Shown: positions 45,509-53,588, numbered from the stretch's first letter. The stretch is DNA of 64,000 nucleotides from an uncultured Candidatus Saccharibacteria bacterium (GCA_964637185.1 CAZWVB010000001.1:160972-224971), one strand, 5' to 3'. The notes: generated by a model from the sequence alone, not told the origin. A program made the numbers and translations.

Positions 45509-46366
45509 GTGCGTGCAATTCGGATAATAGTAATAGTACTGTCATCATTGTTGGTTAGCGTATTTGTCCTACTGACTGTATTAAATCAGATAGTGCAGCA
45601 GTCTGATAAGGTAACCAACCTACTTGATAGCGCACAAATATATGATGTGATCAAGCCCCAGATACGTAGTGAAGTTGTAGACAATGTCAGTCTTGACAGC
45701 CCATATGCCGCTAGCTTCAATGCTCAGCTCGATACTGTATTGCAGCCTGGGCTGATCAAAACCATGTTTGAGCCAGTTGCATCAGGCCTGGTGAGTTGGT
45801 TGCGTGAGCCGTTAGATGTTGAGCCTAGGCTCAATGTAGATCTAACACCACTACGACAAGCCATGAGCCAGCCACCCAGCGATGTAGCGGCCAATAAGTC
45901 CTCAGATTATCAGTTTTTTGTAAAAAGAACTGTGCCGGACTCTATTGAGATAAATCCTCAAGACGGTACCATCAATGTATTGTCATCAATAACAAGTTTG
46001 AAAACTGTAGTGACCAAATTGCCGCAAATGCAGTTGATGCTGCTGATAATTATCGCAGTAGCCCTAATACTAACTATTATTGCCAGCCTTTTGGCCAAAC
46101 GCAGCGTATTTGCGGGTCTTGGATTTGTCAGTTTGGGATCGGCATTGGTACTTGCAATAGCGACACTCACAAGCCCAAGCATAACTAAGACACTAACAAC
46201 TACCAACAACGCTTGGATCATAAGTGTTAAGTTGGCCTTGGCATCCACCGCTTTGTACGGCCCCTATGTTCTCTGGTTGAGTGTAAGCGGGGCGATTTTG
46301 TGCGCTCTTGGATCAGCTTTTTGGTGGATACGTCGTCGCAAGCTCAAGCGTGGTGGTGAGCGCTAG
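45509..46366 (+). CDS. Hypothetical membrane protein (N-terminal TM plus a C-terminal multi-TM region)
   Basis: GTG start. CCAATTGGtgTATAAT lies at 45467-45482 upstream. Confidence 0.45.
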   Translation: MRAIRIIVIVLSSLLVSVFVLLTVLNQIVQQSDKVTNLLDSAQIYDVIKPQIRSEVVDNVSLDSPYAASFNAQLDTVLQPGLIKTMFEPVASGLVSWLREPLDVEPRLNVDLTPLRQAMSQPPSDVAANKSSDYQFFVKRTVPDSIEINPQDGTINVLSSITSLKTVVTKLPQMQLMLLIIIAVALILTIIASLLAKRSVFAGLGFVSLGSALVLAIATLTSPSITKTLTTTNNAWIISVKLALASTALYGPYVLWLSVSGAILCALGSAFWWIRRRKLKRGGER

Positions 46367-48383
46367 TATTTTTTTGACGAGATCCCAGCTCCCACTGCAA
46401 CATTGATCTAAGCATACACCAAGCCACACATAGATCAGCCAAGGGCAATAACAATACAGCGATCAGATGTTGTTTTAGTACTATGCCATGCAATAATCTT
46501 TGGGCATAAAAGATTACAACAACTACAAAAAGTAACCAAGCGATTTCGCTACCAAAGCCAAGAAATTGCCAGCCGAACAAAACCAGCGGTAATATACCAG
46601 TGATAAAAATGGTAGTACAAATCGCGACTATCATTGGTAGTGAAAAATAACTCCAAGGATAGGCTTGTTCGGCTAGTATATCCATACTAGGGTTATTTTC
46701 TTGATGGAATTGGGCGGCAGCTTGGCTAGTGCCCAACAAGGACAGGGTTTTGATACCGCGGGTCATCGCATGGCGCAGCAAATCCGCCGCTATTATACTA
46801 CTGTCTTTACACTTGCTAAGACCGTGAAGCTTTTCGAGCTGCTTGGCGTCACAAGCGGTAAGTTGGCCATACCACAAGCTGTGCTTTTGGGATTGCAAAT
46901 TTGCTAAGAAATTTGGCGACCAATTATTTATTAGGGCATTGAATTGGCCCACGCTCAGTAAATGCGCCAGAGACGATGTCGGATCAGCTGTTTGCATAGC
47001 TACAAATCCGACGCTCTTCGTGTGCATTTGTGTGGCCAGCACAGTTAAAGCATTTGGATAAAGAATAATATCCTGATGCAGCATAACCACTATCTGACCT
47101 TTGGCTTGCTGACGCATTGTTTCAAATGCCCAAGTTTGTTTGTGCCAACCATCGGGCGACGGTGGCAATTCTACTATGCGCAATCTTTTGTCTTGTTGGG
47201 TCTGTAATCGAGATAGTGTAGCATCGGTCGATCCAAGATCAGCAATCAGTATTTCAAAATCCGGATAATTTTGGCCAAGCGCTGCCAGTAACGTTGAATT
47301 GATAGTGGATGATTGGTTGTAGCAAGTCATGAGTATGCTTATTTGTGGCCAGTGTTGTATTGATTTGTCTGATTTGAGTTTGGATCGCATCAGCCAAAAA
47401 TTGCAGACACTAATTACCAGTCCAAATAAGCTTATCATCAACAATATTATTGTCGTTACTAGCAGCCAGTTACTTCTCAACCCCAAAGTATTGTAGCCCC
47501 ACATCAGGAGAATAGTCAGTCCTGCTCCCACAAAATAGTTAAGCCAAATGAAATTCTTCCAAGCAGCCTGGAATCTATTACTTCTAGCATCCGATGTAAA
47601 TTTCAAGAAAAAGCTAGAATTGAGTATGTATAGGCTCAACAGCGCAGCTGCCCAAATACCCGTAGGCGCATAAGCCACTGCTACCATAGCCGCTGCCAAT
47701 GAGTACATGGCTAGGACAATTCGATTGGTACGGCGCGCCCCAAAAACAGTGGCGATTGATGCAATATTGGCAGCACGATCTGGTTTGATATCTTGAATTG
47801 CACCGAGCGCGTGAGATGCCATGCCCCATAACAAAAAAGCTCCTAGTGCCGCAAGGTATGGTGCCAGGCTGATGTTCCCAGCGAATAACAACCCAAACAA
47901 AAATGGACTCACAAAATGTAAGCTAGAGTTGAGCGAGTCCAGTATTGGAATCTCTTTGAACCTTAGTGGCGGCATACTATAACTTATGCAAAATATTATC
48001 AACAGTATGAAGAAACCTTTTGCTATCCAGCTGCCGCTAAGAAGAAGAATAGCAATACCCAGTGGTACCACAGTTAATAGGATTGCATACCAGATGGTTG
48101 GTCGCTTGTCCTTGCCTACCAAAGCGCCTTGCATGGAATTTTTGCGTGGGTTCTTGAGGTCACTTTCATAATCAAAAATATCGTTGACGCCATACATCAA
48201 TAGGTTGTAAGGCATCAAAAAGAAGATCAGTCCAAGCCAGAACATGATGTCAAGGTTGGCATTGGCTATTAGATAGCCGGCAGCAAATGGGAAAGCTGTA
48301 TTGGGCCAACTAATTGGTCGGCTAGTCAGTAGTATCAGACGTATTTTTTTTAGTAGGTTGGAAATATTCATACAATAACTCAA
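46344..48383 (-). CDS. Fusion protein: N-terminal UbiA-family prenyltransferase (lycopene-elongase-like) plus C-terminal family-2 glycosyltransferase
   Basis: UbiA Asp-rich motifs VNDIFDYESD and DIKPDRAAN, with multiple TM helices. C-terminal GT2: ISILMTCYNQSSTINSTLLAALGQNYPDFEILIADLGSTD. It lies in the carotenoid cluster next to the lycopene-cyclase-domain genes. Confidence 0.7.
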   Translation of the reverse strand: MSYCMNISNLLKKIRLILLTSRPISWPNTAFPFAAGYLIANANLDIMFWLGLIFFLMPYNLLMYGVNDIFDYESDLKNPRKNSMQGALVGKDKRPTIWYAILLTVVPLGIAILLLSGSWIAKGFFILLIIFCISYSMPPLRFKEIPILDSLNSSLHFVSPFLFGLLFAGNISLAPYLAALGAFLLWGMASHALGAIQDIKPDRAANIASIATVFGARRTNRIVLAMYSLAAAMVAVAYAPTGIWAAALLSLYILNSSFFLKFTSDARSNRFQAAWKNFIWLNYFVGAGLTILLMWGYNTLGLRSNWLLVTTIILLMISLFGLVISVCNFWLMRSKLKSDKSIQHWPQISILMTCYNQSSTINSTLLAALGQNYPDFEILIADLGSTDATLSRLQTQQDKRLRIVELPPSPDGWHKQTWAFETMRQQAKGQIVVMLHQDIILYPNALTVLATQMHTKSVGFVAMQTADPTSSLAHLLSVGQFNALINNWSPNFLANLQSQKHSLWYGQLTACDAKQLEKLHGLSKCKDSSIIAADLLRHAMTRGIKTLSLLGTSQAAAQFHQENNPSMDILAEQAYPWSYFSLPMIVAICTTIFITGILPLVLFGWQFLGFGSEIAWLLFVVVVIFYAQRLLHGIVLKQHLIAVLLLPLADLCVAWCMLRSMLQWELGSRQKNTSAHHHA

Positions 48384-48645
48384 AAATAGCAGGAACTATG
48401 GTAGCAGCCAATAGTGTATAGCCAAAATCCTCAATAGGAATAGTTAAAAGTTTTACTCCAAGAATTGCTCCCATATTATACTGCACGATTGGCCGATAGG
48501 TGATCCACCAGTCAAATATAATAGTTAAAATAGTCAGCCCAAGCAGTGTAAGCACCCAAGCCTTCAAAACAATCTTCCGGCGTGCCAAAAAAAGTACTAT
48601 TAAAGCTATAATAACTTCCAGTGCCAATAGCAGGCCGTATTTCAT
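48322..48645 (-). CDS. Lycopene cyclase domain protein (heterodimeric cyclase subunit, CrtYd/CrtYf-like)
   Basis: 107 aa. Three TM helices. Conserved PIED motif (TIPIEDFGYTLL). Confidence 0.7.
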   Translation of the reverse strand: MKYGLLLALEVIIALIVLFLARRKIVLKAWVLTLLGLTILTIIFDWWITYRPIVQYNMGAILGVKLLTIPIEDFGYTLLAATIVPAIFELLYEYFQPTKKNTSDTTD

Positions 48646-52403: not shown

Positions 52404-52415
52404 GACACTAGAAGT

Positions 52416-53588
52416 ATGGCCCCAAAATCATCCAAATTTGTGGTGGATGGTATTGCATATGAACTTAGTCCGGATGGTGCTCGTCGTGTAGGTGTCAAAA
52501 CCAAGCCCAAAATTGGTGTTAAGAGACCAACCCATACCCAAACCAGCAATCCTGAGATCATACCACTCAATACCGAAAGTCGTAATACAAGCAGCTGGCT
52601 TTGGATATTGACCAGCGTGCGCATGGTGCTTTCAATCCGGTTTTGGTTGGTAGTATTTTTACCCATTGGATTACTGATTGTCATTAAGACCCTACAACTC
52701 AATTCGTATGAGTTGGTCCAAACTGGCTCCAATTGGTTGACACTTGCCAAAATAGCGCGCCTACAACTCACGGCGGTTTTTTTTGCTGCTCTGCTGGTAG
52801 TAGGTATTTTTCTAGAGGCTTGGTTGCGCAAATTGGCTGCTGATAATAAGCCAACGTATTGGAGTATGATGGCGGCGATTGTTGCATCATCACTTGGCTA
52901 TGGCGTGTTAATAATGATGGCAGCGGCGTTAGTGTTTGGCGTGTGTCTGATGACGATTAATCAGTTGTATGTAGCCTTACCTATTTTGACCGTCTTCATA
53001 TGCTTACTAATCGTGGCGAGCTGGCTCATGTTTGCTCTATGGTGTTGGTCTCGTCGCAACTTAGTGTTGTCTGGATTTGGCCAGTCCTTGAAGGTGAATC
53101 GACAAATCTTATTGCCCAAATCAGCGAACGCTGGATTTCTTGCCACTACAGGCTATTCAGCAATACGTATCTTGCCAGCCACTATGACACTGCTGCTGCT
53201 TTTGCTAGTAATAGGTATAATTACTTTGGTATTTGTATCTGGTTTGTCGGTAGGCTGGCAAGCATTAACAATGATCTTGGGCTTGGTGTTAAGTCTGTTG
53301 ATGCTTAGCTATGATCATCTTGCAAAACTCCAATACTGGCGACAAGTGTTGAAACCTGCCGATCAATACAAACGGTATCCGTCGGGTGCTTTGACCATGC
53401 TAGGAGTCGATGCCCTTGTGGTTGTATTAGTGGCCGTAGCACTTATGGTACAGTTGGTGATCCCAAAACTACTCTTGAAAGCACATCTGACCACCAAAGA
53501 CATCAAAAAAACCTTTGATCAACTCAATCTTACACTGCCGTCACCCAAGCAGGTCAAACCATTTGACAACTCTACAGAAAACAGGTAA
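52416..53588 (+). CDS. Hypothetical polytopic membrane protein (390 aa)
   Basis: Roughly 8-10 predicted TM helices. No recognised motif. Immediately downstream of crtB. Confidence 0.5.
   Translation: MAPKSSKFVVDGIAYELSPDGARRVGVKTKPKIGVKRPTHTQTSNPEIIPLNTESRNTSSWLWILTSVRMVLSIRFWLVVFLPIGLLIVIKTLQLNSYELVQTGSNWLTLAKIARLQLTAVFFAALLVVGIFLEAWLRKLAADNKPTYWSMMAAIVASSLGYGVLIMMAAALVFGVCLMTINQLYVALPILTVFICLLIVASWLMFALWCWSRRNLVLSGFGQSLKVNRQILLPKSANAGFLATTGYSAIRILPATMTLLLLLLVIGIITLVFVSGLSVGWQALTMILGLVLSLLMLSYDHLAKLQYWRQVLKPADQYKRYPSGALTMLGVDALVVVLVAVALMVQLVIPKLLLKAHLTTKDIKKTFDQLNLTLPSPKQVKPFDNSTENR

Follow-up and report, generated by a model that had tools for sequence, protein, structure and literature searches.

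We have characterized a carotenoid gene cluster at positions 46344–53588 of a stretch of DNA from an uncultured Candidatus Saccharibacteria bacterium (GCA_964637185.1, CAZWVB010000001.1:160972–224971; the whole 64,000-nucleotide stretch is referred to as the window, and positions are counted from its first nucleotide). We consider it probable, if well short of certain, that the cluster directs the synthesis of a C50 carotenoid of the cell membrane that is both cyclic and glycosylated, and that it does so with a bifunctional protein in which a lycopene elongase of the UbiA family is joined to a family-2 glycosyltransferase (GT2). All substrates and products, as well as the ring type, the attached sugar and the supply of isopentenyl diphosphate (IPP) and dimethylallyl diphosphate (DMAPP), are predictions made from family membership and genomic context. 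At least 36 independent genomes share the gene order, which is therefore not a chance arrangement, and comparative data indicate that the cluster is a native, vertically inherited trait of the Saccharibacteria and not a recent transfer from a host.

Organization of the gene cluster

The cluster comprises two divergent operons with a 36 bp divergent promoter region (48978–49013) between them. On the minus strand, two small genes coding for cyclase-domain subunits, cycA (48642–48977; 111 amino acids, PVEE motif) and cycB (48322–48645; 107 amino acids, PIED motif), precede the gene for the 679-residue fusion protein, UbiA::GT2 (46344–48383), which has a TTG start at 48383 and an alternative ATG at 48371. 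On the plus strand are crtI (49014–50507), coding for a 497-residue protein of the phytoene desaturase family, crtE (50500–51552), coding for a 350-residue short-chain polyprenyl diphosphate synthase presumed to be a geranylgeranyl diphosphate (GGPP) synthase, crtB, coding for phytoene synthase and ending at 52403, and U390 (52416–53588), coding for a 390-residue polytopic membrane protein with no Pfam or NCBIfam match. Overlaps of 4 nucleotides are seen between cycA and cycB, of approximately 50–62 nucleotides between cycB and the start of the fusion gene, and of 8 nucleotides between the crtI stop and crtE. The crtB product is 290 residues long if read from 51531 and 283 residues from an ATG at 51552, and the latter start is the likelier, judged by relatives of 277–283 residues.

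Calling of open reading frames (ORFs) recovered every ORF of a preliminary description of this DNA at the same coordinates, and the Pfam and NCBIfam assignments uphold its view that the set of carotenoid genes is complete; the DDIEDGD, DDLLG, PIED and PVEE motifs that it quoted are all seen in the translations. The G+C content of the cluster is 0.40–0.45, compared with about 0.49 for the window, and there is no sharp edge. The rest of the window consists of core Saccharibacteria genes, including those for EF-G, EF-Tu, Tmk and SHMT, ribosomal protein operons and tRNAs.

The UbiA module is related to CrtEb-type lycopene elongases

The proposal that the 679-residue protein joins a UbiA-family domain to a family-2 glycosyltransferase is borne out by Pfam, with a UbiA match at residues 31–280 (E 2.5e-24) and a Glycos_transf_2 match further downstream. 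The UbiA module (residues 1–300; 47484–48383, minus strand) has nine predicted transmembrane (TM) helices and scores 336.5 bits on NCBIfam model NF009608, for which the cut-off is 217. On NF009516, the haloarchaeal Lye model, it scores 136 bits, below the cut-off of 205, and on the MenA model only 25 bits. Both NF models were calibrated with reference proteins picked by synteny: NF009608 gives 420 bits for CrtEb of Glutamicibacter arilaitensis, which makes mainly decaprenoxanthin (PMC6262435), 444 bits for Corynebacterium CrtEb, and 469 bits for an Arthrobacter cyclase-elongase fusion of the LbtBC type, and NF009516 gives 397 bits for a haloarchaeal elongase located between a crtD-like gene and cruF.

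A neighbor-joining tree of 83 UbiA domains (200 bootstraps, rooted on haloarchaeal Lye and containing no MenA or CyoE sequences) is in agreement with these scores. Fusion proteins of the Chloroflexota branch first (bootstrap 89), followed by a clade (98) of actinobacterial and Saccharibacteria sequences, within which actinobacterial CrtEb together with a second, unfused Saccharibacteria type described below (type 2; 85) is set against 37 fusions of the type found in the window (type 1; 87). The window domain pairs with that of its closest relative, L009 (98). The module has Asp-rich motifs N67-D68-xx-D71-xxx-D75 and D198-xxx-D202-R203, of which N67, D68, D71, D75, D198 and D202 are invariant in 27 family members, and a Foldseek search with an AlphaFold2 model matched the UbiA structures 6m31 and 4tq4. 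The placement is supported as that of a lycopene elongase of the CrtEb/LbtBC type, and not of the MenA or heme-O type; grouping with menaquinone or heme-O prenyltransferases, which would have spoken against the preliminary description, was not observed.

Two cyclase subunits precede the elongase

Directly upstream of the elongase are two subunits of the ~100–130 residue size class with a PxE(E/D) motif, and this cyc-cyc-elongase order is a C50 signature of characterized clusters (PMC6669644, PMC2889829). The CycB product scores 43.9 bits on TIGR03462 (Lycopene_cyc; cut-off 39.4), for which the CycA match is marginal. In BLAST comparisons with actinobacterial C50 clusters, CycA pairs with the cyclase gene that comes first (the CrtYe/LbtA position; E values down to 1e-13 to 1e-14), and CycB pairs with the second, or with the N-terminus of the Arthrobacter LbtBC-type fusion, as expected for a counterpart of CrtYf or of the LbtB part of LbtBC. 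The two have no similarity to each other detectable by BLAST. These genes thus carry the motifs attributed to them and match both actinobacterial subunits in the same order, consistent with CycA and CycB forming a heterodimeric C50 cyclase like CrtYe/CrtYf or LbtA/LbtB. A tblastn search with cycA against plasmids, aimed at C40 cyclases, gave no match.

Early pathway enzymes

CrtI scores 490 bits on TIGR02734 (cut-off 238) and has the N-terminal GxGxxG signature of the subfamily in a flavin adenine dinucleotide-binding VGAGIGG sequence at residues 9–15. It is 56–65% identical to the CrtI proteins of type-1 loci, 28–31% identical to those of actinobacterial C50 clusters, and 31% identical to a haloarchaeal crtD-like protein. 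A database search returned more than 115 Patescibacteria-type clusters at 51–66% identity, after which identity drops to 42–46%. The window CrtI is thus placed by sequence in a large Patescibacteria-specific clade, which answers in favor of the lineage the question raised earlier as to whether crtI is actinobacterial or lineage-native. A CrtID-type (bacterioruberin) desaturase was considered and dropped: on the haloarchaeal CrtID model NF058655 the window protein scores 424 bits, below both the cut-off of 640 and the 463 bits of a decaprenoxanthin producer's CrtI, and a true haloarchaeal protein scores 754. Its presumed activity is conversion of phytoene to lycopene.

The crtE product matches Pfam polyprenyl_synt (E 1e-52) and contains the DDIEDGD and DDLLG motifs, and the crtB product matches SQS_PSY (E 6e-39) and contains two DxxxD motifs.

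The glycosyltransferase module and the origin of the fusion

The membrane glycosyltransferase module occupies residues 306–679 (46347–47468, minus strand; GT-A domain at nucleotides 46713–47348), and its Pfam GT2 match extends over residues 346–527 (Glycos_transf_2 at 349–466, E 3e-13). The AlphaFold2 model of the fusion, built from a 27-sequence alignment (predicted local distance difference test score 87.5, predicted template modelling score 0.86), has nine UbiA TM helices, a linker TM helix at 306–332, a GT-A domain at approximately 346–557, and C-terminal TM helices at 582–666. Because the odd number of UbiA helices is followed by one more, the elongase and GT2 active sites are predicted to share one, presumably cytoplasmic, face of the membrane. 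The GT-A region is modeled with confidence, and Foldseek also matched the GT2 GT-A enzymes WrtF, PcManGT (6yv7), BcsA and SpsA. Acidic residues are retained at the positions expected of a GT-A-fold GT2 enzyme for nucleotide-sugar binding, metal binding and the catalytic base (D382 in ADLGSTD, D438 in HQD, and D534 in AAD), but all three motifs are reduced from the canonical forms, HQD standing in for DxD and AAD for ED.

When 1.84 billion representative sequences were scanned using HMMER with the GT2 half, only other fusions were found below an E value of 1e-30. Next came unfused proteins of 355–411 residues that align end to end at 21–28% identity, and whose best NCBIfam families are HpnB and CruG, both terpenoid glycosyltransferases, although under cut-off. 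The GT2 half is more divergent from its relatives (27–49% identity) than the UbiA half (47–65%). In a GT2 tree, run with capped distances because of saturation, the GT2 halves of Saccharibacteria and of Chloroflexota form one clade each (100%), a joint clade appears in only 9% of bootstraps, and their mean identity of 21% is not above that to unfused GT2s. A single origin of the fusions in the two phyla is therefore unsupported, and a GT2 resembling HpnB and CruG has probably been fused twice, independently, to the same elongase family. By the Rosetta-stone argument, independent fusion in two phyla would imply functional coupling of elongase and GT2, and this suggests that the two activities serve one pathway.

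Distribution and inheritance of the cluster

Full-length homologues of the fusion fall into approximately 95 protein clusters at 90% identity, are 35–57% identical to the window protein, and, where they carry a name, all belong to Candidatus Saccharibacteria. The fusion is present in at least 36 species-level Saccharibacteria or Patescibacteria genomes (GTDB species representatives); genome counts here are lower bounds, derived from the best 80 of 154 confirmed matches. The preliminary description asked whether related genomes share the cluster, and these genomes have the same gene order, the type-1 layout: rplA-rplK-nusG-secE, a membrane ORF of 380–490 codons, crtB-crtE-crtI, a short gap, and cycA-cycB-UbiA::GT2. 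In the closest locus (L009, CAZSVP010000002.1), the fusion is 57% identical and the flanking ECF (extracytoplasmic function) sigma, FtsX/ABC, nusG-rplK-rplA and dCTP-deaminase-like genes are also present. Judged from record titles only, many type-1 sequences were obtained from lake or surface water (Baikal, Mendota, ELA, Biwa, Umea). The fixed position next to secE-nusG-rplKA (at least 36 genomes), the lineage-specific CrtI clade and the unremarkable G+C content together show the cluster to be lineage-native, in line with the earlier proposal that it belongs to the genome backbone. The elongase alone has a specific sister-group affinity to Actinobacteria.

Four other Saccharibacteria (L051, L057, L063, L087) have a colinear, unfused and actinobacteria-like crtE-crtB-crtI-cycA-cycB-UbiA cluster, designated type 2, which looks like a separate and more recent acquisition. 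As separate observations on these genomes, the type-2 UbiA groups with actinobacterial CrtEb, and the type-2 CrtI is of the actinobacterial/haloarchaeal type.

Fusions of UbiA and GT2 (677–753 residues) are also found in crt clusters of at least 14 Chloroflexota metagenome-assembled genomes (MAGs), with the order cycA-(cycB)-fusion-crtI-crtB (L044–L047, L053, L055, L056, L059, L064, L066, L067, L074, L075 and L081). They come from Thermomicrobiales, Chloroflexia, Limnocylindrales and Anaerolineaceae and contain the same two modules, with UbiA domains that reach 290 bits on NF009608, and they keep the canonical GT2 motifs DDGSTD, DAD and RED; unlike the window protein, their UbiA domains form a separate, more basal clade, and their GT2 domains are only about 21% identical to those of the Saccharibacteria fusions. 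These fusions imply that an undescribed pathway to a glycosylated C50-type carotenoid may exist in the Chloroflexota. The fusion had been described as unusual, and so it is in comparison with the characterized Actinobacteria, but within a large clade of Saccharibacteria it is the norm, and it extends to a second phylum.

The crtI start is probably leaderless

A promoter-like sequence, TGgTATTAT (48996–49004), ends 9 nucleotides before the crtI ATG at 49014, and no Shine-Dalgarno sequence is present; on the opposite strand TATAAT (49005–49000) faces cycA. A TAnnnT hexamer ending 6–11 nucleotides before the crtI start is found in all 30 loci compared (the window and 29 type-1 loci), against a background of 15% both at random positions and upstream of any ATG, and only one of the 30 has a Shine-Dalgarno-like tetramer; the loci are related and do not constitute independent trials, although the surrounding sequence is otherwise poorly conserved. 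The crtI mRNA is thus probably leaderless or near-leaderless, as first proposed from the window alone, and the conserved start offers a clean comparative example for Patescibacteria. The 36 bp region, with -10 boxes facing both ways, would express both operons.

A proposed pathway and its alternatives

In the pathway that we favor, CrtE would make GGPP, CrtB would join two GGPP molecules to form phytoene, and CrtI would desaturate phytoene to lycopene. By analogy with CrtEb and LbtC, we infer that the UbiA module adds DMAPP-derived C5 units at C-2 and C-2' of lycopene, after which a CycA/CycB heterodimer would cyclize the elongated ends in the manner of CrtYe/Yf or LbtA/B. The membrane GT2 module would then move a sugar from a cytoplasmic nucleotide-sugar to the hydroxyl or hydroxyls of the C50 product, such that the fusion places the first and last tailoring active sites on one membrane scaffold.

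Several observations weigh against this pathway. For freshwater Saccharimonadia, the absence of a C5 isoprenoid pathway and the presence of only the C10–C20 steps have been reported (PMC9166423), and no C5 isoprenoid genes, of either the methylerythritol phosphate (MEP) or the mevalonate (MVA) pathway, were found in the window. CrtE is under the cut-off on all GGPP synthase equivalog models (for example 142 versus 500 for GGPP_syn), its C20 chain length being presumptive, CycA falls marginally under the TIGR03462 cut-off (38.3 versus 39.4 bits), and the assignment of the cyclase as C50 as opposed to C40 (CrtYc/Yd) draws on context rather than on a tree. The GT2 module is far under every named-family cut-off (35 versus 600 on CruG model NF045692, and 54 versus 379 on HpnB), and the window's subclade shows some degeneracy in its motifs: HQD and AAD in the window take the places of SAD or DAD and of LED, respectively, in the wider family, and P0002, the closest relative, carries GN where the catalytic base is presumed to be, with no acidic residue there.

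If the cyclase were instead an ordinary CrtYc/Yd-type enzyme and the product a C40 carotenoid, UbiA::GT2 would merely be encoded nearby and would act on another membrane isoprenoid or on an aromatic lipid, for which there is some latitude in the functional diversity of UbiA enzymes and in the distance of the GT2 module from any characterized carotenoid glycosyltransferase. We think this unlikely, in view of the NF009608 equivalog score above its cut-off, the sister relationship of the UbiA domain to elongases of proven C50 producers, the subunit-specific matches of cycA and cycB to C50 clusters, the C50 signature of the gene order (PMC6669644) with cycB overlapping the fusion gene, and the fact that cycA, cycB and the elongase stay together in Saccharibacteria, Chloroflexota and Actinobacteria. 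A different proposal accepts a cyclic C50 carotenoid but not its glycosylation by the GT2 module, which could be dead or structural, or could use polyprenyl phosphate or a cell-envelope glycan as acceptor. The much faster evolution of the GT2 half, its degenerate DxD and ED motifs and its failure to reach any named-family cut-off speak for such a proposal. Nonetheless, about 95 protein clusters have kept the whole domain, its fold is modeled with confidence, the window protein has all of D382, D438 and D534, the nearest unfused relatives are similar to terpenoid glycosyltransferases, and the Chloroflexota have fused the same kind of GT2, with canonical motifs, to the same elongase family; we accordingly give this proposal a low probability.

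A study of Lake Baikal (2023) reported lyeJ, crtD and cruF in Patescibacteria MAGs, among them Baikal-deep-G192, and proposed bacterioruberin as the product (PMC9948471). C50 carotenoid genes in Patescibacteria have thus been reported already, and this same MAG carries a type-1 cluster (L032). An acyclic product of this type would make UbiA a Lye-type elongase/hydratase and the CrtI-family enzyme a 3,4-desaturase, and the window CrtI does give a sub-threshold match to the CrtID model; that match is not discriminating, however, as it is outscored by the match of a decaprenoxanthin producer's CrtI to this model. The UbiA half belongs to the CrtEb family and not to the Lye family, the elongase gene is invariably preceded, with nothing in between, by a pair of cyclase-domain genes, and no CruF homologue was found in the window or in any fetched locus, the rest of the genome being outside that search. 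The bacterioruberin reading is therefore rather improbable for this cluster, and the present data favor a cyclic, glycosylated C50 carotenoid, a refinement of the published view. Least probable by far is that the cluster was recently acquired from an actinobacterial host or entered the assembly through a binning or assembly artefact. Saccharibacteria are known to have actinobacterial hosts, CrtEb of Actinobacteria is the nearest relative of the UbiA domain, and the four type-2 genomes do carry an actinobacteria-like unfused cluster, but the cluster in the window is on the same contig as ribosomal protein operons and has the same place in at least 36 genomes, some of them on contigs of 0.5–0.8 Mb, its CrtI belongs to its own clade of more than 115 clusters and is only 28–31% identical to actinobacterial C50 CrtI, and its G+C content blends with that of the flanks.

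More speculatively, a large clade of epibiotic Saccharibacteria, mostly from freshwater, could use the bifunctional elongase-glycosyltransferase to turn host-derived IPP and DMAPP into a C50 glycoside of their own, with the cyclic C50 carotenoid, and not host retinal, acting as precursor or partner chromophore for the type-1 rhodopsins and heliorhodopsins common in the class, by way of blh-independent asymmetric cleavage. We regard this as a long shot. Cleavage of this kind has been hypothesized for the blh-less actinobacterium Aurantimicrobium minutum (PMC7734400). The search of the window for MEP and MVA genes also covered CruF, rhodopsin and blh, and found none of them.

Comparison with known carotenoid systems

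The closest characterized systems are the actinobacterial C50 clusters, namely crtE-crtB-crtI-crtYe-crtYf-crtEb of Corynebacterium glutamicum and G. arilaitensis (decaprenoxanthin), lbtA-lbtBC of Dietzia (C.p.450), and Micrococcus luteus (sarcinaxanthin); their products are glycosylated by CrtX (PMC5401885, PMC6669644). The window was initially said to mirror such clusters, and it does so in its enzyme set, its cyc-cyc-elongase order and its NF009608 elongase, which is 43–52% identical to theirs. The likeness does not extend to the arrangement, as the window has two divergent operons 36 bp apart beside secE-nusG-rplKA where the actinobacterial clusters have one colinear operon, nor to CrtI, which at 28–31% identity is of another clade. 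Furthermore, no MarR-type crtR was seen, an extra membrane ORF follows crtB, and the glycosyltransferase is at the C-terminus of the elongase, whereas in Actinobacteria it is encoded by a separate gene and in LbtBC it is a cyclase subunit that is joined to the elongase, at its N-terminus.

With the bacterioruberin pathway (CrtD/CrtID-Lye-CruF) of haloarchaea and Arthrobacter, the window shares a UbiA-family elongase that would make a C50 skeleton from lycopene; it differs in having cyclases, in missing both NF009516 (136 versus 205) and CrtID (424 versus 640), and in that no CruF was seen in the window or the loci. The GT2 module, with its GT-A domain set between an N-terminal TM helix and C-terminal ones, has the layout of the terpenoid GT2s CruG/CruC, HpnB/HpnI and CrtQ (staphyloxanthin), but it is joined to an elongase and scores far under all curated cut-offs, its unfused relatives being only 21–28% identical. 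We found no paper in the open-access literature that describes an elongase-GT2 fusion.

The bacterium studied here has a tiny genome and probably depends on a host. Saccharibacteria are models of extreme metabolic reduction, and the retention of a seven-gene membrane pigment pathway at a fixed position across dozens of species points to selection for a costly lipid product. Such a pathway would be relevant to photoprotection, and possibly to how rhodopsins in this lineage obtain their chromophore, and it poses the question of where IPP and DMAPP originate, given that only the C10–C20 steps are reported in freshwater members (PMC9166423). The natural fusions, probably formed twice, may provide a ready-made bifunctional enzyme for engineering C50 carotenoid glycosides, and their repeated formation is independent evidence that this GT2 subfamily may act on C50 carotenoids.

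U390, U285 and neighboring genes

U390 begins 12 nucleotides after crtB and is therefore probably part of the crtI operon, which probably ends at a terminator-like hairpin followed by a T run (53598–53616, plus strand) between U390 and secE. An ORF of 380–490 codons fills the U390 slot in nearly all type-1 loci, but ordinary sequence searches tie U390 only to the ORFs of L009, L001 and L002. A jackhmmer search that linked it to 26 positional counterparts was rejected, the link being put down to drift of the profile in a very small database: when a realistic database size was set, single-pass phmmer matched U390 only to L009, and a profile of the other positional ORFs did not match it. Comparison of U390 with the positional counterparts using hhalign gave a probability of 97.9% (E 3e-13) with a shared N-terminal (V/I)DGxxY motif, and remote homology is thus probable. 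The U390 membrane protein probably evolves fast and is specific to the lineage, and its gene is probably transcribed together with crtI, crtE and crtB.

On the other side of the cluster, U285 (45509–46366, plus strand) codes for a 285-residue membrane protein with no Pfam match and is convergent with the fusion gene, the two 3' ends overlapping by 23 nucleotides (46344–46366). A terminator-like hairpin (46347–46364) lies within the overlap. An all-ORF search found U285 homologues adjacent or close to the fusion gene in more than 20 related loci, which may reflect plain genome synteny.

An ECF sigma factor gene (43603–44163) overlaps a gene for a putative single-TM anti-sigma factor (44160–44678), which is followed by U258, and this region (43603–45438, with equivalents in L009–L040) is convergent with the fusion gene, whose 3' side it faces. 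At least 15 related loci have an ECF sigma homologue at a distance of 2–4 kb from the fusion. Such a neighbor recalls light-induced carotenogenesis (CarQ, LitS), although the crtI promoter looks sigma-70-like. Further to the left, a 1795-codon ORF (36195–41582, plus strand) has a C-terminal GNAT acetyltransferase domain (residues 1648–1749) as its only Pfam match, the other ~1600 residues being unannotated.

The right-hand boundary is secE (53631–53822, plus strand; 63 amino acids), followed by nusG (53830–54369), rplK and rplA. Ribosomal protein L1 (54864–55826, plus strand) is 320 residues long with a Lys/Ala/Glu-rich N-terminal extension of about 90 residues, and L1 is 301–346 residues long in all related Saccharibacteria loci. 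A 635-codon ORF (58306–60213, plus strand) in the most GC-rich part of the window (0.59–0.63) contains two ThyX (Thy1) stretches and is about twice the usual ThyX length; homologues of 545–597 residues are found at the same place in L001 and L004. Three ORFs with NUDIX domains are present in the window, at 538–1206, 8690–9205 and 56940–57449.

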